A stretch of DNA of 39,008 nucleotides from the sequence record SRR33789315_70. One strand, 5' to 3'. Below, piece by piece: positions 1,603 through 36,506 of the stretch (positions are counted from its first letter, which is position 1; every line of letters begins with the position of its first letter). A program made the translations under genes and the position numbers. A model generated the notes under the pieces. The model worked only from the letters and a program-made list of their open reading frames with translations, made no database searches and was not told where the DNA came from.

Positions 1603-1611
1603 AACCTAAAA

Positions 1612-3057: not shown

Positions 3058-3062
3058 AAGAA

Positions 3063-7703: not shown

Positions 7704-7704
7704 G

Positions 7705-10453: not shown

Positions 10454-10464
10454 AAAAAGAGTTC

Positions 10465-11619: not shown

Positions 11620-11620
11620 A

Positions 11621-13003: not shown

Positions 13004-13007
13004 TGGT

Positions 13008-14282
13008 TTAGAGTCCTGTTGCTATGGTTTTGGTTCCGCGTTCTTGTATTAAATTCTTTCGCACGCCTAATTTTCTATACGTCGACAATGGATTAATTGC
13101 TCCACCTAAGTCTTCCCGCATTTTTTTAAGCAAGGGTCTAACATCGGTTCGGTAAGCATCTTGCAAAATTTCCTGACATTGGGCTACATCGTTTTCATTT
13201 TGAGCCATTAAAAGAGCTTTTCTATCAATGATCAATGCCTGTGCATACGCAATCATAATAGCTTCTAAGGATTGGAGTAAATCCTCCAGCGGATCTTTAG
13301 TATTGTGACTTGCATCTATCATCCAAGCCAAATCTGGATTTTGCGGATTGTTTTCCATACCATAAACCAGTTCATTGAAAATCAAGAATAGGGCATAGGG
13401 TTTTATGGAACCTACCGTAAGATCGTCATCACCGTATTTGCTGTCGTTAAAATGGAAACCACCTAATTTCCCTTTAAGCATAAGGGTTGCCACAATCTGT
13501 TCTATATTAGTATTGGGTAAATGATGACCCAGATCTACCAAGGTGAAAGCTCTATCTCCACAAGCTTGTGCCAGCATAAATGAAGTGCCCCAATCTTGAA
13601 TCACAGTGCTATAAAAATTGGGTTCGTAGGGTTTATATTCAATAAAGAGTTTCCAGTCTTCTGGCAAAGCAGAATAAATGGATTTTAAGCTTGCTTCGGT
13701 GTTTTTTAGCACCGATTGAAAATTAGATTGCCCTGGAAAATTAGCCCCATCTGCCAACCAAACCGTAAGACTTTTTGAGCCTAATTCTTTTCCGATTTTA
13801 ATTACCTCTAAATTATGCTGAATGGCTTGTTCTCGAGCAGATTCGTTTATACTGCTCAGTGAACCGTATTTATAGGTCTCTGTGGCATTAGTCTGATCCT
13901 GAAAAGTATTTGAATTCATAGCATCAAATGCAATTTGATGCTTTGCTGCAATTTCTTTTATGGCATGAACATCTGAGGGGATATCCCACGGAATATGTAA
14001 TGAAACAGCACCCGCACATTTTGTCAGGGCATTTAATATCCCAATATCATCCAGTTTTTGTTCTAAAGAAGCTGGCTCGCCACCGTATGAAAATCTTCCG
14101 AAGCGGGTGCCTCCAGCCCCTAATGCCCAACTGGGTATGGCGACTTGAAACTGCGAGAGTTTCTCCAAAACATGATCGAAGTCAATATTTTGATTATGAA
14201 GTTTCTTTTGTAGCAGTTCAAGTTCACTCACATAACATGAATCTGAATTTAAATCTGCTATTTGGTTAGGGGTTATTATCAT
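13008..14282 (-). CDS. rhaI: L-rhamnose isomerase, RhaI type (xylose-isomerase-like TIM barrel)
   Basis: 424 aa; PSWALGAGGTRF, LHIPWD, NSNTF, WLADG, EYKPYEP, VDLGHH, HFNDSKYGDDDL. Confidence 0.88.
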   Translation of the reverse strand: MIITPNQIADLNSDSCYVSELELLQKKLHNQNIDFDHVLEKLSQFQVAIPSWALGAGGTRFGRFSYGGEPASLEQKLDDIGILNALTKCAGAVSLHIPWDIPSDVHAIKEIAAKHQIAFDAMNSNTFQDQTNATETYKYGSLSSINESAREQAIQHNLEVIKIGKELGSKSLTVWLADGANFPGQSNFQSVLKNTEASLKSIYSALPEDWKLFIEYKPYEPNFYSTVIQDWGTSFMLAQACGDRAFTLVDLGHHLPNTNIEQIVATLMLKGKLGGFHFNDSKYGDDDLTVGSIKPYALFLIFNELVYGMENNPQNPDLAWMIDASHNTKDPLEDLLQSLEAIMIAYAQALIIDRKALLMAQNENDVAQCQEILQDAYRTDVRPLLKKMREDLGGAINPLSTYRKLGVRKNLIQERGTKTIATGL

Positions 14283-14293
14283 TTAAAATGGAG

Positions 14294-16393
14294 TTATCTT
14301 ACAAATGCATTAGCCATACCACCGTCTACATTTATAGTGTTTCCTGTACTTTTATCTAAAATTCCTACACAAACAAAAACGCCATTGGCGATATCTTGCG
14401 GAAGAATTATCTCGTTCAATAAATTTCTTTTAGCATAATGTTTGGGGAGCTCATCTACAGAAATCCCGTAAGCTTTTGCTCTTCCTTCAGCCCATTCTCC
14501 TTCCCATATTTTACTCCCTACTATGACACCATCTGGATTTACGGTGTTTACGCGTATTTTGTCTTTACCCAATTCTGCAGCCAAAAGACGCGTCATATGA
14601 AGTTGTCCTGCTTTTGCCGTTCCATAACCCACATTATTGGGGCCAGCAACGAGACCATTTTTACTAGCAATAGAAACCAGATCGCCTCCTAAATTTTGTT
14701 TTCTAAAAATATCAACTGCTTTTTGCGCCAATTCAAACTGGCCTTTAACCAAAACATCTTGTAACAGATACCAGTCTTTCTCGGTAGTATCTTCTAGAGA
14801 TTTTGAGATGGCAAGACCTGCACTATGTACAACAATATCTACTCCTCCAAATTCTAAACAGGCTTTTTTGAATGCTTTTTGAATAGATTCTGGTTTAGTG
14901 ACATCACACATCACATACGTAGCAATATCATTTTTAAAAGATTTTTCAACCTCGATCAATCGATCTTCAGCAATATCTGTAAGAACAATATTAGCTCCCT
15001 CTTCTGCAAGTTTTTCTGCAATAGCTTTTCCTATTCCGCCACCGGCGCCAGTAATTAAAGCTATCTTTCTAGAGAGGGTTTTCTCTTTGGGCATACGTTG
15101 TAATTTGGCTTCTTCCAGTAACCAATATTCAATATCAAACGCTTCCTGTCTAGGTAATGATGTGTAGGATGAAATGGCTTCTGCACCGCGCATTACATTG
15201 ATGGCGTTGACATAAAATTCGCTTGCTACCCGTGCTGTTTGCTTGTTCTTTGCAAAACTGAACATTCCTACTCCTGGATAGATTATAATCACGGGATTAG
15301 GATCTCGCATAGCAGGACTATTTGAGTGCTTACAATTTTCGTAATATGACTTATATTCTTCCCTATAAGCGACAAAGGCAGGCTCAAGTTCTTTTAAAAC
15401 AATAGCAGCATCTGTTTCTTCAAAGTCAGCACCCAGTTCGAGAACAAGAGGCTGTATTTTTGTACGTAAAAAGTGATCGGGACAGGAAGTGCCCATGGGA
15501 GCTAGGCGGTCAAGATCATTACTGTTTATATATTCTAGAACAGTTACACTATCTGTAAAATGACCAATCATTCTATTTTCAGAAGAGGTAAGTCCTCTTA
15601 GGATTGGCATTAATCCGGTAGCTTTTTCTTTTCTTTTTTCTGAGGTTAGACTTTCAACTTTTTGACCTCCGAAAACGTTACCTTTTTCAGTTAATTTTTT
15701 TTGAATATAATCTGAAGCTTGTTCAATTACTTCCAGACTGTTCATATAGCATTCATAAGAAGTATCGCCCCACGTAAATAGGCCATGGCTTCCTAAGATT
15801 ATCCCGCGAATACCAGGGTTTTCAGTAAGGCATTTTTCAAGTTGAAGTCCCAGATCAAATCCAGGACGCTGCCAAGGCACCCAACCCATACTACCTCCCC
15901 AAATTTCTTTAGTGATTGCTTCACCATCTTTAGCAGCAGCAATAGCAATCAATGCATCGGGATGTAAATGATCTATATGTTTAAACGGGAGTAACCCGTG
16001 AAGCGGAGTATCTATTGATGGAGCTTTACTGTTTAGATCATAAATACAATGATTGAACAAACCCACCATACGGTCTTCATCAGCCAACCCTTGATAGATA
16101 TTTTTTAAATTTCTTAGACGCTTTGTGTAGAGTCCAGCGATACCTTCTCTTGTTAAGGTACCTATATCACCTCCAGATCCCTTTACCCACATAACCTCTA
16201 CATCTTCATTGGTCAAAGGATCTTTTTCTATTGTTTTACAACTGGTATTGCCACCACCATAATTGGTGATTCTAAGGTCAGCCCCTAAGATATTAGAACG
16301 ATATAAAAATAAAGAAACCTGATCGTCTCCCAATTTTTCTTCTATATCTTTATCCCAAAGGTAATTTACATATTCAAAGTTTTTAACTTCCAT
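14294..16393 (-). CDS. rhaD: Bifunctional rhamnulose-1-phosphate aldolase / short-chain (lactaldehyde) dehydrogenase, RhaEW type
   Basis: 699 aa; class II aldolase N-domain (NYGGGNTS, KGSGGD, PSIDTPLH, HLHPD, CPDHFLRTK, EYWLLEEAKL) fused to an SDR domain (TGAGGGIG, YGTAK, VNPD, VDGG). Confidence 0.93.
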   Translation of the reverse strand: MEVKNFEYVNYLWDKDIEEKLGDDQVSLFLYRSNILGADLRITNYGGGNTSCKTIEKDPLTNEDVEVMWVKGSGGDIGTLTREGIAGLYTKRLRNLKNIYQGLADEDRMVGLFNHCIYDLNSKAPSIDTPLHGLLPFKHIDHLHPDALIAIAAAKDGEAITKEIWGGSMGWVPWQRPGFDLGLQLEKCLTENPGIRGIILGSHGLFTWGDTSYECYMNSLEVIEQASDYIQKKLTEKGNVFGGQKVESLTSEKRKEKATGLMPILRGLTSSENRMIGHFTDSVTVLEYINSNDLDRLAPMGTSCPDHFLRTKIQPLVLELGADFEETDAAIVLKELEPAFVAYREEYKSYYENCKHSNSPAMRDPNPVIIIYPGVGMFSFAKNKQTARVASEFYVNAINVMRGAEAISSYTSLPRQEAFDIEYWLLEEAKLQRMPKEKTLSRKIALITGAGGGIGKAIAEKLAEEGANIVLTDIAEDRLIEVEKSFKNDIATYVMCDVTKPESIQKAFKKACLEFGGVDIVVHSAGLAISKSLEDTTEKDWYLLQDVLVKGQFELAQKAVDIFRKQNLGGDLVSIASKNGLVAGPNNVGYGTAKAGQLHMTRLLAAELGKDKIRVNTVNPDGVIVGSKIWEGEWAEGRAKAYGISVDELPKHYAKRNLLNEIILPQDIANGVFVCVGILDKSTGNTINVDGGMANAFVR

Positions 16394-16493: not shown

Positions 16494-17516
16494 ATGATAG
16501 AATTTATAAAAATAAATGAATACTCCAAAGTTCCGAAGTATAAACAGATAATTAATTCAATCTTTTCAGCTATTGAAAATAACGATGTTAGACTCAATGA
16601 TAAGCTTCCCTCTGTAAATGAACTTTTAATAGAATTTGATATCTCCCGAGATACAATTGTGCGTGCATATGACTACCTGAAAAAGATAAATATTATAGAA
16701 TCTGTTCCGGGTAAAGGTTATTATATAAAAAATGATAAGCTTGAATTAAAAGCTCAGGTATTTCTCCTTTTTAATAAATTAAGTCCTCACAAAAAGATAA
16801 TTTATGATGCTTTTTCAACTACTCTCGGAGATAGTGGAACCATAGACTTCTTCATATATAACAATAATTATAGGCATTTTAAAGAGCTTATATTATCTAG
16901 TAAAGCAAGACAGTATACACATTATGTAATTATCACTCATTTTGAAGAAGGAGGAGAGGATGTTGTAGAATTTATCCAAAATGAAATACCTAAAGACAAA
17001 TTGGTGATTTTAGATAAAAAGATTGATAATCTAGGATCAGATGTGGCTTGTGTATATCAGGATTTTAAAAATGATATTTATTCTGCATTGGGTAATCTCA
17101 ATCCGTTGTTGAAAAAATATAAAGAGCTAAAATTAATTTTTAGAAAGAAAAGCTATCAGCCTTTAGAAATAAAAAAAGGTTTTAAACAGTTTTGTGGAGA
17201 GTATGCCTATGATTTTGAAATTGTTGAAAATCCAGAGGATATGGTCATTACTAATCATACAGTTTATATTAATTTGAAAGAGGATGACTTAGTTACTTTA
17301 ATTAAAAAAATAAAACGTACCGAATTTGTCTTAGGCAAAGATGTAGGTATCATTTCTTATAATGATAACCCACTTAAAGAAATTCTTTTAAATGGGATTA
17401 CCGTTATATCTACAGATTTCAACAAGCTAGGGGAGCAAGCAGCTCATTTAGTACTTAACAATCAAAAACTTCAATTTGACAACCCTTTCTATGTTATACC
17501 TAGAAAATCTCTCTAA
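16494..17516 (+). CDS. GntR-family regulator with C-terminal sugar-binding (periplasmic-binding-protein-like) domain, Bacteroides FucR-like
   Basis: 340 aa; PKYKQI...KLPSVNEL...ISRDTIVRAY...PGKGYY winged HTH; C-terminal DVGIISYND...ITVISTDF..LG resembles LacI-type effector domains. Divergent from the rha operon. Confidence 0.9.
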   Translation: MIEFIKINEYSKVPKYKQIINSIFSAIENNDVRLNDKLPSVNELLIEFDISRDTIVRAYDYLKKINIIESVPGKGYYIKNDKLELKAQVFLLFNKLSPHKKIIYDAFSTTLGDSGTIDFFIYNNNYRHFKELILSSKARQYTHYVIITHFEEGGEDVVEFIQNEIPKDKLVILDKKIDNLGSDVACVYQDFKNDIYSALGNLNPLLKKYKELKLIFRKKSYQPLEIKKGFKQFCGEYAYDFEIVENPEDMVITNHTVYINLKEDDLVTLIKKIKRTEFVLGKDVGIISYNDNPLKEILLNGITVISTDFNKLGEQAAHLVLNNQKLQFDNPFYVIPRKSL

Positions 17517-17610: not shown

Positions 17611-17737
17611 GATGGTTAACATTGTGTGATGATATTTATAAGCTAACTTTTTTTCACCTATTATATTCTATCTACTATATCGATTGAGAAGGCACTCTTT
17701 TTATATTGGTTTTAGAGTAAAGTCAAATAAAAGACAT

Positions 17738-20700
17738 ATGATGAGCACAAAAAAAATTTTACAAGTATTCCCTTTTTTATGGGCAATTCTATTGAGCATT
17801 ACCTCTTATGGTCAAGAAAATCTTACCGTAACAGGAACGGTGAGAGAAGAAGCAACCGGCTCACCTATTCCGGGAGTTACCATTTTGGTAAAGAGTACAA
17901 CAGTAGGTACGACTACGGATTTTGATGGTAATTTTAGCATAGAAGTGAATCCAGAGGCCACATTAGTGGTTTCCTATTTGGGTTTTGCTACGCAGGTGAT
18001 ATCAATTAATGGCAGGACAGTTATCAATATTGCACTTACTACTGATTCACAAGAATTATCAGAGGTAGTAGTTGTTGGTTATGGTACAGTCCGAAAAAGC
18101 GATCTTACCGGGGCGGTTTCTTCCATTACCTCTGAGCAAATTCAGGAGCGCTCAAATGTGAATGTTATGTCATCTCTATCTGGACAAGTAGCCGGGGTAC
18201 AGATACAACAAACACAAGGCGCACCTGGTTATGCACCTGTTATAAAAATAAGGGGAACATCTACCATCACCGCGGGTATTAATCCTTTATATGTAATAGA
18301 TGGTTTTCCTATAGAAGGATTTGATATGGGAAATATCAATCCTCAAAATATTGAATCTATAGAGATTCTAAAAGATGCATCTTCTGCTGCTATTTATGGA
18401 TCACGTGGTGGTAATGGAGTAGTACTCATCACCACCAAAAAAGGAGCAGTGGGTAAAACTCAGGTCAGTGTAAGCTATGAGCACGGCGTGCAACAGGTGG
18501 TTCGAACTGTAGATATGATGAATTCACAAGAATTTATCCAGTATTATGTTGACGCACATAACAATTCTTGGATACGAGAAGGAGGAAGTGCCAGTGATCC
18601 CAATAGTATAAGACCTTCAAATTATCAAATTCCGCCCGAATTTTTGACAGCTCCCGATAGTTTTGAAACAACAGATTGGCAAGACGTGCTTTTTAGCGAT
18701 GCACCAAGTGACAATATAAATTTGTCAGTAAGTGGAGGTAATGAGAATACAAGATTCTTTATTTCTGGCGGATACATTTCGCAGGAAGGGATTGTTGACA
18801 ATGCAGAATATAACCGTCTTTCATTACGCTCTAATATCTCTCATAATATTGTAGATAATTTAAAGGTTGGGATGAATTTATCCTTGGCTAATATAAAAAG
18901 TAAGGAGTATGGTACCACCGGTAAAGCGGGCTCGGTAAGCTTATCTTTACAAAATGATCCTATTTTTCCCGTGTATAATGAAAACGGAAACTTAGGTTTT
19001 AAAGATCCCAATTCGGTATGGAGTAGGTTCATTCCTTATAACCTTCAGCTTTGGCATCCATATGCGCTCACCCGAGAGATTGATAATCTAAACAAAGAAT
19101 TAAATGTTATAGCAAATACTTTCGCAGAATATAATTTTCTTCAGGATTTCACTTTTAGAACAAGTTATAACTTCACAGTTAATAACAGTCGTTATAGTGA
19201 CTATCGCAATGAAGGCCAGTTATGGGGATATTCAAACTATCAACCTGCTTTAGCCAATAACAATACCTATTACAATTACAACTGGCTTTTTGAGAACACC
19301 TTGAACTACAATAAGATACTGGGTGAGCATACTTTCAATGTACTTCTGGGTTATTCTACACAAGAGAACCATTATGAAGAAAGCCTTATTACTTCAGATA
19401 ATTTCCCTAATGATCTTGTGCACACACTTAATGCTGGAAAACCTGCATCTGCATCGTCTTCTGAGTCAGACTGGAGTATGATTTCCTATTTGGCAAGGCT
19501 TAATTATTCCTTTCAAGATGAATATTTATTAACGGCAACCATACGTCGAGATGGTAGTTCACGGTTTGGTCTTAATAATCAATGGGGATATTTCCCTTCA
19601 GGATCAGTAGCATGGAAACTGTCAGAAAGAGATTTTATTAAAGAATTAGATTGGCTTTCTACATTGAAATTAAGAGCAAGTTATGGTATTACAGGAAACA
19701 ATTTAATACCCAATTATGGTGCTATAGGGCTTTTGGGCCAAACCCAATATGCTTGGGGTAATAATGTGGAGCAAGGAATTTATAAATCTACCATATCAAA
19801 TGCTGATCTTAAATGGGAAAAAACAGGACAATTTGATATAGGTCTAAATGCTTCTCTTTTTGGTAACAGGATTTATGTAGAGGCAGATTATTACAGTTCT
19901 ACAACTCGAGATTTGCTATTGAACCAACCCGTACCTCTTATTACCGGTTTTGCAGAGCAGTTAACCAATATTGGTAAAGTGAGAAACAGAGGTTTTGAGT
20001 TTTTGGTAACCAGTAAGAATTTTGTGGGAGAATTTGGATGGCAAACAAATTTCAACATATCTATCAATCGTAATGAAGTATTGGAATTGGGACAGAACAA
20101 TGCGCCTATTTTTGTTAATGAATGGGGTACTACCAAAACCGAAATTGGCGAACCTATTGCCAATTACTTTGGCTACATCTTTGACGGCGTTTTCATGAAT
20201 CAAAGTGAGGTAGACAACTATCCACATGTTTCTTCGACAACGCCTGGAGATCCAAGAGTTAAAGATGTAAATGGAGATGGTACCATTGATGAAAACGACC
20301 GGACTATTATAGGAAACGCACAACCTGATTTTACTTTTGGTTTTACCAATACCTTTACCTTCAAAAATTTTGATCTCAGCGCAACCCTTCAAGGATCTGT
20401 AGGTAACGAAATTCTTAACAGCCAAGCCAGATATAATAAATATTATAATGGAAACAGGAATGGTTATAAGCAAATTGTAGACTACTGGAAGTCTGAATCT
20501 AATCCTGGTGACGGTGAGCATTTTAAACCTTATGTAAGTTATCCTGGTCTCCAAACTCAGTTTTCCGATTATTGGGTTGAAGATGGCTCCTATCTGCGTA
20601 TTGCCAATCTTAGGTTGGGATATTCCTTCTCTGAAGATAATCTAACCAGAATGCCTTTTAAAGATGCTCGTATTTATATAAATGTTGACAACCTTTATGT

Positions 20701-20827
20701 ATTTACTGATTATTCCGGTTATGACCCAGAGAATAGTACATACTCAGACGCATTAAATACAGGAAATGATTACGGCGCCTATCCATTGCCGAGAACCATA
20801 ACAGTAGGCGTAAAACTCGGTTTGTAA
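17738..20827 (+). CDS. susC: SusC/RagA TonB-dependent transporter (PUL-1)
   Basis: Signal peptide, CarboxypepD_reg-like domain (GTTTDFDGNF), EVVVVGYG, plug ILKDASSAAIYGSRGGNGVVLITTKKG, LKWEKT, C-terminal YPLPRTITVGVKLGL. ATG at 17738 or 17741 preferred to the TTG at 17684. No N-terminal STN domain apparent. Confidence 0.96.
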   Translation: MMSTKKILQVFPFLWAILLSITSYGQENLTVTGTVREEATGSPIPGVTILVKSTTVGTTTDFDGNFSIEVNPEATLVVSYLGFATQVISINGRTVINIALTTDSQELSEVVVVGYGTVRKSDLTGAVSSITSEQIQERSNVNVMSSLSGQVAGVQIQQTQGAPGYAPVIKIRGTSTITAGINPLYVIDGFPIEGFDMGNINPQNIESIEILKDASSAAIYGSRGGNGVVLITTKKGAVGKTQVSVSYEHGVQQVVRTVDMMNSQEFIQYYVDAHNNSWIREGGSASDPNSIRPSNYQIPPEFLTAPDSFETTDWQDVLFSDAPSDNINLSVSGGNENTRFFISGGYISQEGIVDNAEYNRLSLRSNISHNIVDNLKVGMNLSLANIKSKEYGTTGKAGSVSLSLQNDPIFPVYNENGNLGFKDPNSVWSRFIPYNLQLWHPYALTREIDNLNKELNVIANTFAEYNFLQDFTFRTSYNFTVNNSRYSDYRNEGQLWGYSNYQPALANNNTYYNYNWLFENTLNYNKILGEHTFNVLLGYSTQENHYEESLITSDNFPNDLVHTLNAGKPASASSSESDWSMISYLARLNYSFQDEYLLTATIRRDGSSRFGLNNQWGYFPSGSVAWKLSERDFIKELDWLSTLKLRASYGITGNNLIPNYGAIGLLGQTQYAWGNNVEQGIYKSTISNADLKWEKTGQFDIGLNASLFGNRIYVEADYYSSTTRDLLLNQPVPLITGFAEQLTNIGKVRNRGFEFLVTSKNFVGEFGWQTNFNISINRNEVLELGQNNAPIFVNEWGTTKTEIGEPIANYFGYIFDGVFMNQSEVDNYPHVSSTTPGDPRVKDVNGDGTIDENDRTIIGNAQPDFTFGFTNTFTFKNFDLSATLQGSVGNEILNSQARYNKYYNGNRNGYKQIVDYWKSESNPGDGEHFKPYVSYPGLQTQFSDYWVEDGSYLRIANLRLGYSFSEDNLTRMPFKDARIYINVDNLYVFTDYSGYDPENSTYSDALNTGNDYGAYPLPRTITVGVKLGL

Positions 20828-20847
20828 AATAAAAAAAAAGCAGCAAA

Positions 20848-22275
20848 ATGAAAACAAGTAATATTAAAATAACCCTACTCGCACTTCTAGGTATATACCT
20901 AACGTCCTGTTCGGATGATTTTTTGGAGTTGGCTCCTATTTCACAAATGAATGAGAATGACTTCTATCAATCAGAAGCAGATTTCAGGCTGGCTGTAAAT
21001 GCAGCTTATCAAACACTTCACAGTCAATATGGTCCTAATAGCGGGGTAAGTTACGTTGGCGAACAAATGTCTGATGAAGCTACCGTTTATATGGTCATAG
21101 GAAATGTAGCAGATAGATCTGCTTTTAAAAACTATACCTTACGTGCAGATAATAGTGTGGTACAAACTATTTGGAATGATGCTTTTATTTCCTTAAATAG
21201 AATCAATACGGTTCTAACCAGAATGGAAGGAGCCGATTTTGATGCAAGTACGATGACTGAAATTGAAGGGGAGATGCGTTTTTTACGCGGCTTGTACTAT
21301 TTCAATTTAGTAAGAATGTTCGGTCCAGTACCACTCTTGGAAAGGACGGTTTCAGTTGAAGAAAGTTATGGTGTATTACGCTCACCGGTAACTGAAGTTT
21401 ATGATTTCATAATCTCAGATCTACAATTTGCAGCAGCTAATTTACCTCTTGTCTCAGAGGCCGAAAGAACTGGCCAAGCAACTGAAGGAGCAGCAAAAGG
21501 AATTTTAGGTAAAGTCTATCTCACCTTGGGAGACAACAGTTCTGCAGCTTCTGTTTTAGAAGACGTTATTGATTCTGGAGAATATCATCTACTAGACAAT
21601 TACTGGTGGTTGTGGGATTTAGAACATGAAAATTCATCTGAGGCTGTTTTTGAAGTCCAGTACGTAGGCGGTCCTGGTAATCCAGCAAGTGCCTATTGGC
21701 CAGAGTTTTCTCCCTTTGAAAATTTTATTATCACGAATCAAGGTGGTGGAATGAATCAAGTAACAGAAGACCTCTGGAATTCTTATGAAGATGATGATCC
21801 TAGAAGAGAATACTCTGTTAATGAAGGATATTACGACAGCAACGGAACATTTATTCCAATTAAATTTCCTAGAAAATGGGAAGATAGAAATGTTATTGAA
21901 AAGTATGGTAACGAGTATTGTGATAATAATTTTATAGTCCTTAGGTATGCAGATATTTTACTAATGTATGCTGAAGCAACCCAAGATCCCACTTACCTTA
22001 ACGAAGTAAGAGAAAGAGCCGGTGTCCCACTTTATGGCACGGCAGGTTACCCTTCTGCAATGTACCCGTCGTTTGATCTAGCAATAGAACATGAGAGAAA
22101 AGTTGAACTGGCATTAGAATTTCATCGCTGGTTTGACCTTAAGAGAAAAGATAGGGTTATACCTGTAATGACAGAATTTTTAGGAGAAAATATAAAAGAG
22201 GACGAACTTTTATTGCCTATTCCACAAACGGTGATTGATAAAAATCCTGAAATTAGCCAAAATCCCGGATACTAA
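20848..22275 (+). CDS. susD: SusD/RagB glycan-binding lipoprotein (PUL-1)
   Basis: 475 aa; lipobox LTSC, GEMRFLRGLYYFNLVRMFGPVP, RYADILLMYAEA, ERKVELALEFHRWFDLKR, QNPGY. Confidence 0.95.
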   Translation: MKTSNIKITLLALLGIYLTSCSDDFLELAPISQMNENDFYQSEADFRLAVNAAYQTLHSQYGPNSGVSYVGEQMSDEATVYMVIGNVADRSAFKNYTLRADNSVVQTIWNDAFISLNRINTVLTRMEGADFDASTMTEIEGEMRFLRGLYYFNLVRMFGPVPLLERTVSVEESYGVLRSPVTEVYDFIISDLQFAAANLPLVSEAERTGQATEGAAKGILGKVYLTLGDNSSAASVLEDVIDSGEYHLLDNYWWLWDLEHENSSEAVFEVQYVGGPGNPASAYWPEFSPFENFIITNQGGGMNQVTEDLWNSYEDDDPRREYSVNEGYYDSNGTFIPIKFPRKWEDRNVIEKYGNEYCDNNFIVLRYADILLMYAEATQDPTYLNEVRERAGVPLYGTAGYPSAMYPSFDLAIEHERKVELALEFHRWFDLKRKDRVIPVMTEFLGENIKEDELLLPIPQTVIDKNPEISQNPGY

Positions 22276-22287
22276 TTTTGGGATAGT

Positions 22288-22324
22288 AAGGGAATCTTTT
22301 TTAAAAGATTCCCTTTATTTTTTT
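22288..22324 (+). terminator. Intrinsic terminator / attenuator between susD and the enzyme genes
   Basis: Perfect 13-bp inverted repeat AAGGGAATCTTTT-tt-AAAAGATTCCCTT (22288-22315) followed by a T-rich tract. Confidence 0.8.
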
Positions 22325-22350: not shown

Positions 22351-24642
22351 ATGAATAAAATATGGTCAAAATACGTCGCTCTAGTGATTTTCCTGAGTTT
22401 ATCAAATACCTATGGATGGAGCCAAATAACCTATCCAGATTATAAAGAGGAAAGTGAGAAAGCTAAAATCTCGACGAAGATTTCAAATGAATACATGCCG
22501 GTAATAGGTGTTTGGGTTTGGGGTCAACGTGATATGGAACCTGATGGATTCAAAAAGAGTATAGACGATCTTGCTTCAAATTCTCCCTTTAATCTTATCG
22601 TTCCTTTTTTGCGATTTCCTGACAAAGAAGTGACTGATGATGTGGTTTATCAGCAGGTGAAAGAAGCTTCAGAATATGCAGCGGCAAAAGGCGTATTGCT
22701 AGTGCCAGATCTTGATGTGCGTTCTGCGAGGAGGGCCTTTAAGGCTAAATATCCAGACGAGCTTCAACAAATGTTGAGGTTAAAGGAAGTTGAACTAGAG
22801 GATAAAACAGTTACGATTCCCAGTATGGATCTTAATGATCATTATTCTGGCGGAAACATTACCCATCATATTCCTTTAGAAGGTGAATTGCTCAAGGTGT
22901 ATGCTTACAAAACCACTACCGAAGGAATTGAACCGAAGTCTATTGTTGATATTACTGAAGAAACTAAAATCCTATATGCTACTAAAGATTCAGTAAGTGT
23001 ACAATTACCAGCGCTTAAAAAAGGTCTGACGCATGCTTCGGTTTTAGTTGCTTTTACACACTTATACCCTGATATCTTCGGTCCTCATCTTATGAAATTC
23101 CAAGAGGGTATCATTAAAAAGTATAAAGGACTTCCAGTAGCAGGTGTTTGCAAGGATGAGTTTGGTTTTCCTCCTTATTATCCGAGATTTTTTAGACAAG
23201 GATTTTATGATTATTGGTATTCTGTTAATCGCGCAGAAGCTTATCAAGAAAAAACAGGAAGAGAACTTCTGCCAGACATATTGCTAATGGCCAGAAAGGT
23301 AAAGGGGAAAGAAAGTGAGCGGCAAACGGCGATCAATAATTTTATGGAGATGTCCAGATACCGTCATCGCGATCTTGAAGCTAGTTTTTATGATACGACT
23401 AAAGAAGTATTTGGTCCAGATGCTGCAGTAACGGTACACTCCACGTGGTGGCCTTTTCCTGACAAGCAGGAATTTAAGAAAAACGGACTCGATTGGTGGG
23501 TTACAAAGCGGGATTGGGCACAGACTGATGAGGTGGTTCCTTATGCTGTTCGGACTGCTTTGAGTAAAAAATGGCCCAGTCCCATTTGGTACAATATGTA
23601 TTATAAAGAGGATTATTCAACCCAGATGTGGAGCTCGGTTCTTGCGGGTGGAAGATTGAATTATTTAAGGTATTACGCTTTATATGATAAGGAGCGCATG
23701 CAAGGTGAAAACCGAATTAGACTCCTGAATTATATCACAAAAACACCCGTTTATTCACCTGTCGCAGTGATTTTTGGTCACGCTAATGCAATGAATTGGG
23801 CAGGTACTGAGCACGATGACGTAGGGATGGCATTAGTGGATAGCTTGTGGCATAAAGGTTTTCTTGTAGATTTGATTCCCACCAGTGAAATTGATAATGG
23901 AAGTTTAGAAATTTCACCTAGCGGAAAAATCAAATATGGTTCTCAGGAATATGAAGAAGTTATTCTTTATCATCCTGAATTTGAAAAGGAATCTACAGCT
24001 GATTTCTTTAGCAAAGCCAAAAAAGGAACTGCACTATACCGCATAGGAGATTGGACTAAAACTTTCGATGGAAAAGCTATTGAAGGGAATGATTTACTTC
24101 CAGAAATGATGCAGGTCGCTGGAGGAATTTCAGAAACCGCTGAAGCGGTCATTAACTCTTTAAAGTCCAAAAACATAGATCCTCAAAGCCCATCTACCGA
24201 AGTAATTGACAATACTTTTTTTGGTTTACGGGATTTTGAACACGCTTCGTATGCCCCGCCTACCACTGGTTTTGCTAAGTTGATAGATGGAACAATAATT
24301 AAAACTGCTGGAACTAATTCTGCTGCGGGCGATCCCATAAATGAAGAGTTTAAGATACGTGATAAAACTGTCTCTGTTGATGCAATAGGTGTTGTTGCAG
24401 TGCGTCTAGATGAGGCGGGAAAATTGGATGCTATGGTTGCTGGAGGCTTTAAGTCTTTTGAAGTAGATGATTTCAAAATTGAGCTAAATGAAAGAAATGA
24501 TATAGCTTTATGGAAAGACGAAAATGACCAATGGAAAGGCGTTTTTCAAAGTATTAACTCTGAAATCCCTCAAGAATTATTAAAAATCACTCATAATTGG
24601 ACACAATTAGAGGCACCCACACCGCCCTTAAAAGAGCAATAA
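22351..24642 (+). CDS. Secreted protein of unknown function; candidate glycoside hydrolase (TIM-barrel-like plus GH42/GH106-style Rossmann-like domain)
   Basis: 763 aa; signal peptide; Trp/Tyr-rich; VCKDEFG acidic pair after a beta-strand; PVAVIF...SLWHKGFLVDLI segment resembling the domain after the barrel in GH42/GH106. Located in a PUL. The ORF is secure, the function is inferred. Confidence 0.55.
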   Translation: MNKIWSKYVALVIFLSLSNTYGWSQITYPDYKEESEKAKISTKISNEYMPVIGVWVWGQRDMEPDGFKKSIDDLASNSPFNLIVPFLRFPDKEVTDDVVYQQVKEASEYAAAKGVLLVPDLDVRSARRAFKAKYPDELQQMLRLKEVELEDKTVTIPSMDLNDHYSGGNITHHIPLEGELLKVYAYKTTTEGIEPKSIVDITEETKILYATKDSVSVQLPALKKGLTHASVLVAFTHLYPDIFGPHLMKFQEGIIKKYKGLPVAGVCKDEFGFPPYYPRFFRQGFYDYWYSVNRAEAYQEKTGRELLPDILLMARKVKGKESERQTAINNFMEMSRYRHRDLEASFYDTTKEVFGPDAAVTVHSTWWPFPDKQEFKKNGLDWWVTKRDWAQTDEVVPYAVRTALSKKWPSPIWYNMYYKEDYSTQMWSSVLAGGRLNYLRYYALYDKERMQGENRIRLLNYITKTPVYSPVAVIFGHANAMNWAGTEHDDVGMALVDSLWHKGFLVDLIPTSEIDNGSLEISPSGKIKYGSQEYEEVILYHPEFEKESTADFFSKAKKGTALYRIGDWTKTFDGKAIEGNDLLPEMMQVAGGISETAEAVINSLKSKNIDPQSPSTEVIDNTFFGLRDFEHASYAPPTTGFAKLIDGTIIKTAGTNSAAGDPINEEFKIRDKTVSVDAIGVVAVRLDEAGKLDAMVAGGFKSFEVDDFKIELNERNDIALWKDENDQWKGVFQSINSEIPQELLKITHNWTQLEAPTPPLKEQ

Positions 24643-26769
24643 ATGCAGAGAATGTTTAGACATACCCTTATACTTTTAGTTCTGATAATAGGACAAGGTT
24701 CCTTTTCTCAAATAGACCGTAAGGCTTTGGTGACAAGACATAATGTAAAAGTTTCAGCGATGGATACGCTTTCCTCATTGACTGTGGGAAATGGCTCTTT
24801 TGCTTTTACCGTAGATGCGACCGGCTTACAAACCTTTCCTGAACGCTACCAAAACGGAGTGCCTTTAGGAACCGAATCTGAATGGGGATGGAACAGTTTC
24901 CCAAATAATGAGGAATATACCTTTGATGAAACCTTACAAGAATTTGATCAATTTGGACGCAAGGTAAAGTACAGTGTGCAAGGTCAAAAATCAGAAAGAG
25001 CTAAGGGAGCAATTAATTATTTTAGAGCGAATCCGCACCGGGTACAATTGGGAAACATAGGGTTTGAACTATTTAAAAAAAATGGAGAACCCGCAACTCC
25101 AGAGGACATCCAGCAAATAGATCAAAAGCTGAATTTATGGACGGGAATTATAGAAAGTCATTTTACGGTTGAGGGGAAATCTGTTCACGTTTGGACGGCT
25201 TCAGATCAAGAAAGTGATGCTATTGGAGTGAAAATTGAATCTGAATTAATAAAAACGGGTCAGTTAAAAATCAGGATTCGGTTTCCGTTTCCCACAGCAG
25301 GATGGACAGACATAGGAACTTTATGGCAATCTGATAGAAATTATACGAGTACACTTTCCATGCAAAAAAATGGAGGAATCATCAACCATAAAATGGATTC
25401 CTTATCCTATCAAATTGGGTTAAAATGGAATGGTAAAGCAGAATTAAAGAAAAAAGAGAATCAATATTTCATATTAGAACCTTCTGGTAAAAGTGAATTT
25501 GCTTTTACAGCATCATTTTCAAATGAGAAGACGGAGAAATTATTGGATTTTTCAACGCTTAAAAGAAATAGCGAAAAAGGGTGGGAAGATTTTTGGGAAA
25601 GTGGAGCTGCGGTTGACTTTTCAGAAAGTACAGACCCGCGTGCCCACGAACTGGAACGACGCGTAGTTCTTTCACAATACCTAACTAAAGTTCAATGCAC
25701 GGGAGAGATGCCTCCACAAGAAACAGGGTTGACGTATAACAGTTGGTATGGTCGCCCGCATCTGGAGATGCACTGGTGGCATAGCTTGCATTTTGCACTT
25801 TGGGATAGGGCAGAATATCTTGAAAAAACGCTGCCCTGGTATAAAAAAACGGCTAATAAAGCTCAAAAATTGGCCGAAAGACAAGGTTTTGAAGGTGTTC
25901 GTTGGCAAAAAATGACAGGACCTTATGGCAACGACACACCCTCTTCTGTAGGTGCATTTCTCATTTGGCAACAGCCGCATTATATCACTTTTGCTGAATT
26001 GCTTTACACCCAAAAACCAACTGCAGAAACTCTGGAAACTTATAAAAATTTAGTCTTTGAAACAGCCGATTTTATGGCTTCGTTTGCGCATTACAATTCT
26101 GAAGAAGATAGATATGAGCTTGGGCCGGGAATCATACCCGCACAAGAGCGTTTTAAACCTTTTCAAACCATTAATCCAACGTATGAATTGGCATACTGGG
26201 ATTGGGCTTTACGCAGAGCCATTAAATGGAAGAAAAGACTAGGGGAGACCCCCAATACTGAATGGCAAAATGTGGTTGATAAGCTTTCACCCTTGCCCAT
26301 TCAAGAGAATATCTATCTTGCGGTAGAAAGTGCCCCTGATTCCTATACCAATCCAGAGTATAAAACCGATCATCCCGCAGTTTTGGGAACATTGGGAATG
26401 TTACCGGAATCTGAGATTCTGGATAAAGAAATAATGAAAAATACCTTCAATCTCATTTGGGATACGTGGTCTTGGGATGAAACCTGGGGTTGGGATTTCC
26501 CCATGACGGCAATGACGGCAACTCGATTGGGAATGCCAGAAAAAGCAATTGAATCCCTCTTTATGGATGTGGAAACCAACACTTTTTTGCCTAACGGACA
26601 TAATTATCAAAACGAGACACTTACCCTATATCTCCCTGGAAACGGCGGACTTTTAACCGCTGTGGCATTGATGTGCGCAGGATGGGAAGGAAACGAAATT
26701 GAAAATCCCGGCTTTCCCAAAAACGGAAAATGGAACGTAAAATGGGAAGGCCTAAAACCAATGTTTTAA
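24643..26769 (+). CDS. Secreted six-hairpin (alpha/alpha)6 glycosidase-like protein, distantly GH95/GH65-like
   Basis: 708 aa; signal peptide; LTVGNG, PPQETGL, WYGRPHLEMHWWH, IPAQE, DHP, PGNGGLL parallel in order the GH95 motifs LPxGNG, PANLQG, NxEMNYW, SPE, HRH, DGNxG. Confidence 0.65.
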   Translation: MQRMFRHTLILLVLIIGQGSFSQIDRKALVTRHNVKVSAMDTLSSLTVGNGSFAFTVDATGLQTFPERYQNGVPLGTESEWGWNSFPNNEEYTFDETLQEFDQFGRKVKYSVQGQKSERAKGAINYFRANPHRVQLGNIGFELFKKNGEPATPEDIQQIDQKLNLWTGIIESHFTVEGKSVHVWTASDQESDAIGVKIESELIKTGQLKIRIRFPFPTAGWTDIGTLWQSDRNYTSTLSMQKNGGIINHKMDSLSYQIGLKWNGKAELKKKENQYFILEPSGKSEFAFTASFSNEKTEKLLDFSTLKRNSEKGWEDFWESGAAVDFSESTDPRAHELERRVVLSQYLTKVQCTGEMPPQETGLTYNSWYGRPHLEMHWWHSLHFALWDRAEYLEKTLPWYKKTANKAQKLAERQGFEGVRWQKMTGPYGNDTPSSVGAFLIWQQPHYITFAELLYTQKPTAETLETYKNLVFETADFMASFAHYNSEEDRYELGPGIIPAQERFKPFQTINPTYELAYWDWALRRAIKWKKRLGETPNTEWQNVVDKLSPLPIQENIYLAVESAPDSYTNPEYKTDHPAVLGTLGMLPESEILDKEIMKNTFNLIWDTWSWDETWGWDFPMTAMTATRLGMPEKAIESLFMDVETNTFLPNGHNYQNETLTLYLPGNGGLLTAVALMCAGWEGNEIENPGFPKNGKWNVKWEGLKPMF

Positions 26770-28127
26770 TGAATAGAATACCTACAATGAAACCTTTTTT
26801 GATACTGCTTTGGTGTTTTTTAAGCGTAAACTCCTTTGCTCAGGTTTTTAATGTTTTTGATTATGGGGCCAAAGGTGATGGGAAAACGAATGATCAGGAG
26901 GCGATTCAACGAGCCGTGAACGCTTGTAAAAATGGAGGAACCGTTCTTTTAAAGAATGGAACTTTTCTTACTGGTCAAATTGAACTGGTGAGTAATATGA
27001 CGTTGCAAATCGATTCAACCGCCACAGTATTGGGAATGAAATCTGACGAGGAAAGCGTTTATCCGCATCAACTTATAGAGACCCAATATCCCAACCGTAT
27101 GGAGCAGGATTGCCAGCGGCGCTTGATTTATGGTAATCATATTGAAAATGTCACCATTACTGGAGGAGGAACCCTAAACGGACAAGGGGATTATGAACCT
27201 TGGATGAATGTAAAAGAGCTGGGTACCGAGAAAGATAGACCGTCAATTTTAGCTTTTGTGGGTTCAAAAAACATAACGGTTTCTAATGTGACGATGCTTT
27301 ATCCAGCTTGCTGGACACAGGTATACATTGAGTGTGACGACGTACATATTAAGGGGATTAAAGTCAATACAGGTCAATTGACACCTAACCGCGATGGGAT
27401 TGATATTGTGGATTGTCATAATGTGTTGATTGAAGATAGTTTTATCCAGTCTGAAGATGACGGGATTTGCTTTAAAAGCGGAAGCGAATACGGGTGCAAG
27501 GATGTGGTGGTGCGCAACTGTATTATTGATAAATTGAACGTTCCAGCAGGGAATGGTTTTAAATTAGGAACAGACGGACTGGGGAGTTTTATGAACTTTG
27601 AAGTTTATGATTTGACCATCAAAAATGCCTTTCAAAATTCGGCATTAGTTATAGAATCTATGGATGGTGCGGTAATCGATAATATCAACATCAAGGATTG
27701 TACAATAGAGAATAGTGGCCAAGCGATTTTTGTGCTGCTGGCTGACAGAAAACGTACGGTTCCCGATCGAAAAGAAAGGATCGGGACAATTTCTAATATT
27801 CATTTTGAAAATATAAAAGGTAAGGATTTTACACAACAATATCCTTCTATAATTACGGGTATAGAAGGGCATAATATTCAGAATATTTCCTTTAAAAACA
27901 TTGATTTTGAATTAAAAGGAGGGATTTCAAATAAAGATCAAACCGTAATGGAATATGACGGTAAATATCCCGAGGGAAGCAAATTTGGCAATACCAATGC
28001 CTATGCTTTTTTTGTGCGTCATACCGATGAAATTTCCTTTGTAAACTGCACTATTTCTTCGGAAGAAGACGATGCTCGGGAATGGTTAATTACTGAAAAT
28101 GTAAACGAAGTTGTTGTTGAAGAATAA
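26769..28127 (+). CDS. GH28-family beta-helix glycoside hydrolase with atypical motifs
   Basis: FDYGAKGDG, NRDGIDI, EDDGICFKSG, FKLGT. Start at 26769 (TAATG overlap with the upstream stop) or 26787; signal peptide follows MKPF. Confidence 0.85.
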   Translation: MNRIPTMKPFLILLWCFLSVNSFAQVFNVFDYGAKGDGKTNDQEAIQRAVNACKNGGTVLLKNGTFLTGQIELVSNMTLQIDSTATVLGMKSDEESVYPHQLIETQYPNRMEQDCQRRLIYGNHIENVTITGGGTLNGQGDYEPWMNVKELGTEKDRPSILAFVGSKNITVSNVTMLYPACWTQVYIECDDVHIKGIKVNTGQLTPNRDGIDIVDCHNVLIEDSFIQSEDDGICFKSGSEYGCKDVVVRNCIIDKLNVPAGNGFKLGTDGLGSFMNFEVYDLTIKNAFQNSALVIESMDGAVIDNINIKDCTIENSGQAIFVLLADRKRTVPDRKERIGTISNIHFENIKGKDFTQQYPSIITGIEGHNIQNISFKNIDFELKGGISNKDQTVMEYDGKYPEGSKFGNTNAYAFFVRHTDEISFVNCTISSEEDDAREWLITENVNEVVVEE

Positions 28128-28137
28128 AGAGACATTT

Positions 28138-29718
28138 ATGAAAAATGTAATACTGTTTTTTCTATTGATTTCAAGTTTTGGCGGAAGCCTAATGGCTCAA
28201 GTATGGCAAGCCGATCTTGAAAATGGAAACTATAAAAACCCGGTTCTTTTTGCTGATTATTCAGATCCTGATATCATTCGGGTAGAAGATGATTTTTATA
28301 TGGTGTCTTCTAGTTTTAATGTGATGCCGGGGATTCCCGTATTACATTCTAAGGATTTAGTGAATTGGGAAATCATCAATCATGTGTATGATAAACTTCC
28401 GCTAGAAAAATATGACAAACCCGTACACGGTCATGGGTCTTGGGCACCTTCTATCCGCTATCACGAGGGTAGGTTTTATGTGTATTTCTGTACGCCTAGA
28501 GATGGATTGTTTATGGCAACCACCACAGATCCTGCTGGAGATTGGGAATTAAATTTGGTGGAAAACGTAGAACTCTGGGAAGATCCTTGTCCGTTGTGGG
28601 ATGATGACGGCAATGCGTATTTGGTGCGCAGTAAATTAAGAGCAGATGAATTGTATTTGCATAAAATGAGCCCAGATGGTAAAAAATTGCTCGATAATGG
28701 CAAATTGATCTATAAAGATCTGGATAAAAATCCGGTTATTGAAGGGCCTAAATTTCTAAAGAAAGACGGGTATTATTATATTTTAGCTCCTGCTGGAGGT
28801 GTTTCGGTGGGATGGCAATCAGCCTTGCGCTCTAAAAATATTTACGGTCCTTATGAAGAAAAAGTAGTGCTTCAAAAGGGAAATACGGAGATTAATGGTC
28901 CGCATCAAGGAGGTTTGGTCGAATTGAAATCGGGAGAATGGTGGTTTATGCATTTTCAAGATCGGGGTGCGTATGGCAGGATTGTGCATTTGCAACCGGT
29001 GCATTGGGAAAACGGATGGCCTGAGATGGGTGTAGATCAAAATAGTGATGGAATAGGCGAGCCTGTTGCTGAATATAAAAAACCAGATGTAGGTAAAGAG
29101 TATCCAGTAATGGTGCCACAAACTACAGATGAATTTGATGGTGAGCAACTGGGACTGCAATGGCAATGGCACGCCAATCCGAAAGACGAATGGTATTCGC
29201 TTTCAGAAAAAGAAGGTTCTTTGAGATTGTTTTCGGTTAAAAACCATACCCAAAATGGGAACTTTTGGTTTGTACCCAACTTGCTGCTTCAAAAATTTAT
29301 GGCGCCTAAGTTTTCGGCAACCACAAAAGTAGAGACGCATTTAGAAGAATTGGGAGAACGAAGCGGACTTGTAATGATGGGGGAACAATGGGCCTATTTA
29401 GCGATAACAAAAACAGATTCTGGAAATGAATTGGGAATGTATGTTGGTTCGTATTACGAAGGTTTTGACAAGACTGAAAAGAAAGCTTCGGTTGATTTCT
29501 CAAACGCTATGTGTTATATGCGTGTAAGAGTGGATGAGCAGTTAGATTGTCAATTTCAATATAGTCTGGATGGTGAAAAATTCACGGATATAGGTGAAAA
29601 ATTTAAAGCAAAGAAAGGAAGATGGATAGGTGCGAAGGTAGGTTTGTTTAGCATTAATCCCAATATTCAGGAGAGCAAAGGATATTCAGATTTTGAGTGG
29701 TTTCGAGTTGGGTTATAA
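28138..29718 (+). CDS. GH43 beta-xylosidase / alpha-L-arabinofuranosidase with C-terminal beta-sandwich
   Basis: NPVLFADYSDPD (base), HSKDLVNW, WAPSIRY, EDP, IEGP (acid), PHQGGLV, DEF..QWQW C-domain. ATG at 28138 is followed by a signal peptide. Confidence 0.92.
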   Translation: MKNVILFFLLISSFGGSLMAQVWQADLENGNYKNPVLFADYSDPDIIRVEDDFYMVSSSFNVMPGIPVLHSKDLVNWEIINHVYDKLPLEKYDKPVHGHGSWAPSIRYHEGRFYVYFCTPRDGLFMATTTDPAGDWELNLVENVELWEDPCPLWDDDGNAYLVRSKLRADELYLHKMSPDGKKLLDNGKLIYKDLDKNPVIEGPKFLKKDGYYYILAPAGGVSVGWQSALRSKNIYGPYEEKVVLQKGNTEINGPHQGGLVELKSGEWWFMHFQDRGAYGRIVHLQPVHWENGWPEMGVDQNSDGIGEPVAEYKKPDVGKEYPVMVPQTTDEFDGEQLGLQWQWHANPKDEWYSLSEKEGSLRLFSVKNHTQNGNFWFVPNLLLQKFMAPKFSATTKVETHLEELGERSGLVMMGEQWAYLAITKTDSGNELGMYVGSYYEGFDKTEKKASVDFSNAMCYMRVRVDEQLDCQFQYSLDGEKFTDIGEKFKAKKGRWIGAKVGLFSINPNIQESKGYSDFEWFRVGL

Positions 29719-33384: not shown

Positions 33385-33396
33385 AAAAAAAATAAT

Positions 33397-35028: not shown

Positions 35029-35070
35029 TGAGAAGTCATCTATCAAATGATAATTAAAAAATTAATTAAT

Positions 35071-36456: not shown

Positions 36457-36506
36457 GTAATGAATTTTCATTAGTATTTATTGAAAAAAATATCAAAAAA
36501 ACAGAA

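Follow-up and report, generated by a model that had tools for sequence, protein, structure and literature searches.

P0001, a GH106-like protein that probably founds a GH106-related family, in a locus that fits rhamnogalacturonan-I breakdown

Introduction

The described enzymes to which P0001, a 763-residue protein encoded in a 39,008-nucleotide stretch of DNA from sequence record SRR33789315_70 (the whole stretch is called the window), appears closest are Ram106B and the GH106_dist enzymes of glycoside hydrolase (GH) family GH106. In the published accounts these are divalent-metal-dependent α-L-rhamnosidases (PMC6828813; PMC6442616), and Ram106B as well as the GH106_dist enzymes of Niabella and Paenibacillus hydrolyse p-nitrophenyl-α-L-rhamnopyranoside (PMC6828813; PMC6442616, Table 2). 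The comparison by Baudrexl et al. (PMC6828813) gives the Ram106B subgroup a signature, in the numbering of BT_0986, in which a D-S pair becomes D-E, E538 becomes His and E561 becomes Asp. The same comparison describes a general-base Glu kept in all of its GH106 sequences (E335 in Tm_Ram106B) and a GH106 acid that is not conserved in the Ram106B enzymes either. According to a review (PMC8002723), oligosaccharides of rhamnogalacturonan-I (RG-I) are finished in B. thetaiotaomicron by the GH106 enzyme BT4145 and the GH28 enzymes BT4146, BT4153 and BT4149.

The open reading frame (ORF) of P0001 is a real gene. Its product is in all likelihood a glycoside-hydrolase-type enzyme of GH106-like fold and is probably the founding member of a GH106-related family; α-L-rhamnosidase is the leading, still tentative, guess at its activity. 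P0001 is predicted to work like a Ram106B-type metal-dependent exo-glycosidase of GH106, and it is not filed as a demonstrated GH106 member because both the Pfam model PF17132 and the base residue fail. A literature search for a characterised member or a named family, which did not extend to CAZy, found no paper describing the P0001 family. The family is unnamed in Pfam and NCBIfam and may already have a CAZy assignment.

The P0001 gene and its predicted fold

The gene and the parts of its product lie as follows, with amino acids (aa) numbered from the start codon and A1 denoting the family alignment described below.

22351..24642, plus strand: ORF P0001, GH106-like protein of 763 aa with an ATG start (ORF list and translation)
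22351..22422, plus strand: probable type-I signal peptide, aa 1 to ~24, without a lipobox Cys (sequence, model and homologue N-termini)
22486..22761, plus strand: first part of the barrel, aa 46-137, strands 1-3 (DSSP on the model, fold matches)
22762..23070, plus strand: all-β insert within the barrel, aa 138-240 (DSSP on the model)
23071..23730, plus strand: second part of the barrel, aa 241-460, strands 4-8 (DSSP on the model, A1)
23731..24180, plus strand: Rossmann-like α/β middle domain, aa ~461-610, which holds PVAVIF...VDLI (DSSP on the model)
24181..24639, plus strand: C-terminal β-sandwich, aa ~611-763 (DSSP on the model)

The N-terminus, read from the sequence itself, starts Lys-rich, is hydrophobic over residues 9-18 and has no Cys. 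Because of this missing Cys, P0001 is not expected to be a lipoprotein. In the structural model helix 2-20 stands isolated and is followed by a linker with a predicted local distance difference test score (pLDDT) below 60, and the N-termini of close homologues are alike. These features agree with the signal peptide proposed in a first-pass annotation, which was made from the DNA sequence and its ORF translations. The motifs quoted there are likewise all found at their expected places and are strongly conserved: KDEFG (residues 268-272), HSTWWP (363-368), DWW (381-383), QTDE (391-394), WYNMYY (413-418), PVAVIF (470-475) and VDLI (506-509). As had also been claimed, P0001 directly follows susD, whose end at 22275 is 76 bases before the P0001 start.

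The AlphaFold2 model of P0001, run on A1, has a pLDDT of 94.0 and a predicted template modelling score (pTM) of 0.93. DSSP assigns to it eight β-α barrel units with strands at residues 52-56, 82-86, ~116-120, 265-269, 359-363, 390-393, 413-417 and 434-438, which bears out the alternating β/α pattern, broken by a β-rich insert, that had been read from the sequence. GH106 profiles have an insert at the same place as residues 138-240, larger than that of P0001. The middle domain can be aligned to its GH106 counterpart and, weakly, to that of GH42. In the model D269/E270 of KDEFG sit at the C-terminal end of strand 4, H363 follows strand 5 and D393/E394 follow strand 6, and the C-terminal strand ends are where barrel enzymes put their active sites.

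In a Foldseek search of the PDB the GH106 rhamnosidase RHA-P comes first (6q2f, E 4.5e-12), followed by the GH42 β-galactosidase 4uzs (4.8e-10), the GH106 enzyme BT_0986 (5mqm, 7.6e-10) and the GH112 phosphorylase 2zuv (3.6e-9). VIA-align, which is independent of Foldseek, gives a flat top at Z ~15 across many barrel hydrolases (PgaB, Cwp19, GH5, GH42 and GH106). The broadest coverage in its list belongs to 6q2f, with Z 15.2 and a root-mean-square deviation of 5.5 over 554 residues in the model range 42-712; the GH42 structures 1kwk (Z 15.4) and 5xb7 (Z 15.2) cover 462 and 478 residues. The model and both searches show the fold class proposed earlier, in which a Rossmann-like domain comes after the barrel, an order shared with GH106 and GH42. 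No close solved structure was found in these PDB structure searches, and the P0001 family has no structural representative in the copy searched.

A large family without annotation

Against Pfam, P0001 matches solely DUF5988 at E 0.19, which is under that model's cut-off, and PF17132 is absent at E ≤ 1. NCBIfam gives no match, and the PDB searched by sequence gives one chance-level match, a kelch protein at E 0.16. A profile of the family against the PDB reaches E 0.13 at best, all of its matches being at chance level, with GH42 chains at E 0.38 over residues 460-516 only. The word orphan, used in the first-pass annotation, thus suits the annotation of P0001, which is blank in Pfam, NCBIfam and PDB sequence searches, and fails for its kin. 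A word-indexed search, in which 8000 candidates were scored, found at least 558 homologous proteins at E ≤ 0.001, and in an exhaustive HMMER search 438 representatives of 50%-identity clusters matched, 337 of them at E ≤ 1e-10 and 170 at E ≤ 1e-30. The 120 homologues listed are all named 'hypothetical' or 'uncharacterized' at source save P0011, a 1091-aa fusion annotated as GH28-related. The family ranges over Bacteroidota and genome bins labelled Pirellulaceae, Omnitrophota and Anaerolineales. A further secreted homologue, L019 (contig CAYWMD010000012.1), comes from a 6.8 Mb bin labelled Bifidobacteriaceae, a label or binning that looks doubtful.

Alignment A1 holds 67 near-full-length members with 22-62% identity to P0001, picked from the matches listed. 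Pfam finds no family in more than two of them (GHL6 in two, E 0.032). The second part of the barrel carries the conserved set D241, D269/E270, K351, H363/T365, E374, W382/W383, R387/D388, D393/E394, N415/Y418 and R435. Within this set H363, T365, W382 and R387 are kept in 67/67 members; E270, D393, E394 and R435 in 66; D241, D269, D388 and Y418 in 65; and K351 and N415 in 63, while E374 is kept in 60 and is Asp in 6 more. Both acidic motifs singled out earlier, KDEFG and QTDE, are by this alignment family-wide invariants. Many distant members are ~680 aa long and have no signal peptide, and in such forms the C-terminal β-sandwich is absent or divergent.

Kinship with the Ram106B branch of GH106

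The GH106 comparison set consists of 10 proteins, taken by PF17132 search from 5 genomes that hold a P0001 homologue. With hhalign, A1 aligns to this mixed set at 97.15% probability (E 4.8e-11, 596 columns). In two of the ten (L030 and L031), 'GDEPDF', a His-rich strand 5 and 'PGVD' replace the classical 'DSWE...E...E'. These two and six more proteins make up a Ram106B-type set, A3, to which A1 aligns at 97.97% in local mode (E 2.6e-13), over 508 columns across the barrel and the Rossmann-like domain, and at 99.44% in global mode. Eight classical GH106 proteins alone give 22.4% in local mode (E 9.4e-4) and 96.8% in global mode, and a GH42 control of six proteins from the same genomes gives 8.1% over 122 columns, in the middle domain only. 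The P0001 family is read as a remote GH106 relative by way of the Ram106B-type branch because the hhalign score is high there and low for classical GH106 alone and for GH42. On the evidence of these profiles it is remotely homologous to GH106, closest to Ram106B and GH106_dist, and beyond the reach of the Pfam model.

This result fits the earlier description of P0001 as a remote relative without recognisable family signatures: PF17132 matches 0 of the 67 aligned members at E ≤ 0.1, yet hhalign reaches 97-98% against GH106 profiles. The proposed GH106 kinship stands for the Ram106B/GH106_dist subgroup and does not carry over to classical GH106 taken alone. An ESM Atlas search with the homologue P0072 returned at rank 13 a cluster with a score of 0.90, 26% of whose members carry PF17132, which is a lead only.

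GH42, the other relative that had been proposed, was rejected at the sequence level. Beyond the low hhalign probability and its restriction to the middle domain, the GH42 model PF02449 has no match, and a hidden Markov model (HMM) built from the GH42 set matches none of 269 family proteins.

Other proteins came to light in the comparison genomes. A 687-aa open frame at G003:C246:4141-4344 has a sub-threshold PF17132 match (23 bits, E 3.5e-5) and may bridge GH106 and the P0001 family. The 1014-aa Ram106B-type GH106 protein L030/L032 (G004:C104) has a ~400-aa C-terminal domain at residues ~620-1014; in Bacteroidota genomes this domain has matches among many stand-alone proteins, which are 450-570 aa long.

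Active-site comparison

The motifs that fall on the GH106 active site are listed below.

23152..23166, plus strand: KDEFG, end of strand 4; D269-E270 fall on the Ram106B-type invariant D-E, which is D458-S459 in BT_0986
23437..23454, plus strand: HSTWWP, end of strand 5; H363 falls on the Ram106B-type invariant His, the E538 position of BT_0986
23521..23532, plus strand: QTDE, end of strand 6; D393 falls on a conserved Asp of the Ram106B-type profile, and E394 is family-specific
23587..23604, plus strand: WYNMYY, strand 7; M416 falls in the GH106 general-base Glu column (E593 in BT_0986)

These pairings come from the hhalign alignment, at ~11% identity and without structural superposition, and the residue roles of BT_0986 are taken second-hand from PMC6828813. 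The alignment puts D269-E270 on D181-E182, H363 on H261, and G379-x-D381 on G289-x-D291, the last Asp being the E561 position of BT_0986 and invariant in the Ram106B-type set. D269 aligns with the metal-ligand Asp, which is the Ca-ligand D458 in BT_0986. The Ram106B signature is thus matched by D269-E270 and H363, and D381 is partly conserved in the family (D in 36/67, N in 11/67). The GH106 general base (E324 in the Ram106B-type set, E593 in BT_0986) aligns with Met416, and the general acid (E461 in BT_0986) aligns with G272. Furthermore, E394, D388, R387 and W382/W383, all invariant in the P0001 family, have no counterpart in GH106 profiles.

Column 416 is Met in 48 of the 67 members, Glu in 13, Gln in 5 and Ala in 1. 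The Glu416 members are a secreted subgroup with 25-37% identity to P0001, mostly with Lys362 beside the invariant His, Tyr429 and Val437, differences that are mostly clade-specific and may reflect either compensation or descent; Met416 and Gln416 members have Val362 and His or Asn437. Judged from the sequence alignment, the metal site may be kept and the base function may lie elsewhere, most plausibly in E394, which is the weakest link in the argument.

The locus in the window

The other genes that bear on P0001 lie on both sides of it.

199..4673, plus strand: uxaC and altronate oxidoreductase-like and altronate dehydratase-like genes, for galacturonate catabolism (Pfam)
9035..16393, minus strand: divergent rhamnose catabolism cluster (Pfam and NCBIfam)
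16494..17516, plus strand: GntR-family regulator upstream of susC (profile match)
17684..22275, plus strand: SusC-like and SusD-like pair (Pfam)
22288..22315, plus strand: terminator-like hairpin between susD and P0001, a 12-bp stem and a T-run (sequence)
24643..26769, plus strand: P0121, an unannotated ORF that starts at the base after the P0001 stop codon (ORF list)
26730..28127, plus strand: GH28 gene, whose nearest NCBIfam model is the BT4146-type rhamnogalacturonidase (Pfam and NCBIfam)
28111..29718, plus strand: GH43 gene with a GH43_C2 domain (Pfam)

The ORFs of P0001, P0121, GH28 and GH43 abut or overlap and form one run with SusC/D. The GH28 protein scores 232.7 bits against the BT4146-type model, under its 500-bit cut-off. 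The rhamnose cluster contains a RhaEW-type bifunctional aldolase/dehydrogenase, L-rhamnose isomerase, an FGGY kinase, a lactate dehydrogenase-like gene of the flavin mononucleotide (FMN) type and a 472-aa transporter-like protein. Its RhaEW-type gene scores 1333 bits, above the cut-off of the model, and RhaEW is described as always present in rha loci (PMC3870299). Among the window's 22 ORFs of ≥150 aa there is no GH78, no Pfam-recognisable GH106 and no other known rhamnosidase family. This gene context fits breakdown of the RG-I backbone.

The hairpin at 22288-22315 has the look of an intrinsic terminator or attenuator and could lower enzyme expression relative to SusC/D. Transcription probably reads through it at a reduced level, since no obvious promoter is seen after it. 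The 472-aa protein that ends the rhamnose cluster (9035-10453, minus strand) has no Pfam match and scores 45 bits against an NCS1-transporter model with a 353-bit cut-off. It may transport rhamnose or rhamno-oligosaccharides and would then be a transporter of a new type. Genes for SbcC- and SbcD-like nucleases (4686-8922, minus strand) lie between the uxa genes and the rhamnose cluster and break the sugar-catabolism region. A separate second polysaccharide utilisation locus (PUL) at 30214-38696 on the plus strand encodes SusC/SusD, a surface glycan-binding protein resembling SGBP-B and a GH10 xylanase with two CBM4_9 modules inserted in its catalytic domain.

Gene context and fusions in relatives

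Neighbours of P0001 homologues were sampled at 21 loci in species-representative genomes, 16 of which had enough flank; 87 of the 123 neighbour ORFs at these 16 were scanned against Pfam, the outermost and shortest being left out. SusD adjoins the homologue in 6 of the 16 loci. GH28 lies beside it in four (L002, L004, L005 and L007), as does GH43 with its C2 domain (L004, L005, L007 and L010), and a P0121 homologue of 49-55% identity is its neighbour in three (L002, L007 and L010). SASA-type esterases occur in three loci and sulfatases in two (L005 and L021), and GH78 (L018), GH88/105 (L005), and GH51 and GH10 (both L009) are neighbours in a single locus each. Several of the loci, L013 and L017 among them, have no carbohydrate theme. 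In a second, phylum-level sample, 10 of 301 genomes matched, and 66 of the 88 ORFs in the ten regions were scanned. Here the neighbours include a GH28-like protein and a GDSL esterase (L089), a GntR regulator, BD-FAE, SASA and two paralogues (L090), a CE4 deacetylase (L091), AXE1 (L084) and GH78 (L092), and L083 holds a BNR fusion.

Fusions in 17 long family members join the P0001-type domain to GDSL esterase (3), Fib_succ_major (2), CE4, BD-FAE, GH2, BNR, HpiC1-like, HAD and peptidase M16 partners. P0011 is a natural fusion in which a GH28-like N-terminus is joined to a P0001-type domain. GH28 and acetyl esterases thus recur both as neighbours and as fusion partners, which fits acetylated rhamnogalacturonan or acetylated pectin as the substrate.

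The neighbour P0121

P0121 (708 aa) has no Pfam, NCBIfam or PDB sequence match. Its family has at least 7999 matches at E ≤ 1e-10, the nearest among those listed, at 68% identity, being from Flavobacteriaceae such as Galbibacter. Built from 19 members, a profile of this family matches a GH65 kojibiose phosphorylase at E 3.1e-5. With a model of pLDDT 75, Foldseek returns GH65 first (7fe3, E 1.1e-18), followed by GH95 fucosidases and GH139; the modelled fold is a β-sandwich with an (α/α)6 barrel, like that of GH65, GH95 and GH139. P0121 is a second probable glycosidase in the same operon because of this profile match and fold.

Proposed mechanism

P0001 would be a periplasmic, exo-acting glycoside hydrolase that takes α-L-rhamnose from the non-reducing end of RG-I backbone oligosaccharides imported via SusC/D. 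It would alternate with the BT4146-like GH28 galacturonohydrolase encoded downstream, and the freed rhamnose and galacturonate would enter the pathways of the adjoining catabolic genes. A divalent metal would be held by D269, H363 and D393, perhaps also by D381 or D388, and would bind sugar hydroxyls. Since Met416 takes the place of the usual GH106 base on strand 7, the putative acid/base pair is E270 (strand 4) with E394 (strand 6), a Glu specific to the family.

It is possible, if somewhat doubtful, that P0001 represents a new GH family that shares an ancestor with GH106, has lost the strand-7 base (Met416) and has moved its role to E394 on strand 6. The specificity of such a family may be new, for example the release of rhamnose or another sugar only from O-acetylated rhamnogalacturonan oligosaccharides, and the 13 of 67 members with Glu416 would be evolutionary intermediates.

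Substrate prediction and alternative explanations

Rhamnose release is a reasonable guess: P0001 is linked to GH106, its gene is paired with that of a BT4146-like GH28, and genes for rhamnose catabolism lie next to the locus. The earlier description of P0001 as the best candidate for rhamnose release is less secure, since P0121 is also GH-like and GH78 stands beside a homologue in two relatives' loci.

Several findings weigh against a GH106-like rhamnosidase. At the level of profiles, PF17132 misses the whole aligned family, and in the 5 genomes with a P0001 homologue it makes 2-13 matches per genome, never to the homologue. All five hold several canonical GH106 genes, so that the family is not needed to supply a missing rhamnosidase there. 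HMMs from the GH106 sets found 3 weak matches each among the 269 family proteins (best E 2.1e-5 in this 269-sequence database), the local hhalign score against classical GH106 is weak, and A3 was typed by the published motif description and the PF17132 scores of two members. In the active site, Met and Gly occupy the base and acid positions, and Glu is a minority in column 416. In the gene context, the GH78 rhamnosidases beside homologues in L018 and L092 imply that the P0001 family need not be the rhamnosidase in every locus, and many relatives' loci have no pectin signature and hold sulfatases, melibiase-type GH36 or cytochromes instead. Finally, P0121 is a real rival to P0001 for rhamnose release.

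A substantial possibility is that P0001 has the same fold and ancestry and another specificity. It would then release a different sugar from acetylated plant or algal glycans, such as an arabinopyranoside, a galactoside, a uronic acid or an acetylated or methylated residue, and the rhamnose of the locus would be freed by P0121 or by an enzyme encoded elsewhere. The same observations on Met416 (48/67), the canonical GH106 genes in 5/5 genomes and the GH78 neighbours argue for such a specificity, as do the family's own invariants E394, D388, R387 and W382, which GH106 lacks, and the mixed neighbourhoods with sulfatases (L005/L021), GH36 (L014/L015), GH2, BNR and esterase fusions. The L-fucosidases of GH95 and GH139, whose fold P0121 shares, act on 6-deoxy-L-sugars, and distant relatives of known families often show new specificities in the survey of Helbert et al. 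(PMC6442616). However, the closest detectable kin, Ram106B and GH106_dist, are rhamnosidases, the locus in the window, in which no other rhamnosidase is recognisable, adjoins a rhamnose catabolism cluster, and the BT4145/BT4146 pair has its parallel both in the pairing and in the fusion with GH28.

The loss of the water-activating base could also mean that the same scaffold serves a carbohydrate enzyme that does not hydrolyse, for instance a phosphorylase, a transglycosylase or a lyase; this is improbable. The replacement of the base Glu by Met416 is compatible with such an enzyme, and GH112 phosphorylases, with their barrel and Rossmann-like domain, are among the top Foldseek ranks (2zuv). 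Phosphorylases are typically cytoplasmic, as the many ~680-aa distant members without a signal peptide could be, but P0001 and its close relatives carry predicted signal peptides. In addition, the GH112 match is no better than those of GH42 or GH106, the profile search of the PDB gives no sequence-level link to GH112, and two invariant carboxylate pairs suit an acid/base hydrolase. A catalytically dead binding or scaffold protein of glycosidase descent is very unlikely: G272 and M416 are not carboxylates at the canonical GH106 acid and base positions, but six carboxylates and a His are kept in at least 65/67 members (E374 in 60/67) down to 22% identity, a typical active-site pattern, and P0001 has no lipoprotein signal for surface display and belongs to a domain found fused to other catalytic domains.

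Significance

A family of 438 clusters at 50% identity, present in PULs, is left blank by Pfam and NCBIfam annotation, and this blank becomes a gap in pectin-degradation pathways rebuilt from genomes. Assigning an activity to it would name hundreds of PUL genes, and a further CAZy family or a deep subfamily of GH106 would probably result. The P0001 family is also a natural case for the loss or move of a catalytic base on a metal-dependent barrel glycosidase. If P0001 is an RG-I rhamnohydrolase, it would be useful as a reagent for analysing pectin structure and for producing rhamnose.

Comparison with known systems

Among the known systems, the GH112 galacto-N-biose/lacto-N-biose phosphorylases share with P0001 a barrel and a Rossmann-like domain (Foldseek E 3.6e-9) and show no sequence-level signal with its family in the PDB profile search. 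As phosphorylases of the cytoplasm they differ from P0001, which is predicted to be secreted. The GH42 β-galactosidases and α-L-arabinopyranosidases resemble P0001 in length and in their three-domain layout of barrel, Rossmann-like domain (the trimerisation domain of GH42) and β-sandwich, but their Pfam model PF02449 does not match it. In clan GH-A, strand 4 carries N-E and strand 7 the nucleophile Glu. P0001, with D-E on strand 4 and N-M on strand 7, is unlike this pattern of GH42.

GH106 activity is that of an inverting, metal-dependent α-L-rhamnosidase. The classical GH106 enzymes (BT_0986, 5mqm/5mwk; RHA-P, 6q2f; the RG-I rhamnohydrolase BT4145) hold the top Foldseek rank and have the same barrel with an insert followed by an α/β domain, in proteins ~300-400 residues longer than P0001. 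Their S459, E461 (acid), E538 and E593 (base) correspond to E270, G272, H363 and M416 in P0001.

The Ram106B/GH106_dist proteins (from Thermotoga, Caldicellulosiruptor and Thermoclostridium, and Niabella aurantiaca WP_018627535.1) are the best profile-profile match of P0001, at an hhalign identity of ~11%. They share with it the D-E pair of strand 4, the His of strand 5 and the G-x-D motif. In contrast, their invariant general-base Glu is Met416 in P0001, which has E394, D388, R387 and W382/W383 as extra invariants, and two Ram106B-type members score over the PF17132 cut-off as against 0/67 members of the P0001 family. The Ram106B-type proteins are 700-1100 aa long with C-terminal domains that differ from that of P0001, and the Ram106B enzymes described in PMC6828813 are without a signal peptide, whereas P0001 has a predicted one. 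Finally, the pairing of P0001 with a GH28 enzyme in the window mirrors the pairing of BT4145 with GH28 enzymes in the RG-I breakdown of B. thetaiotaomicron.

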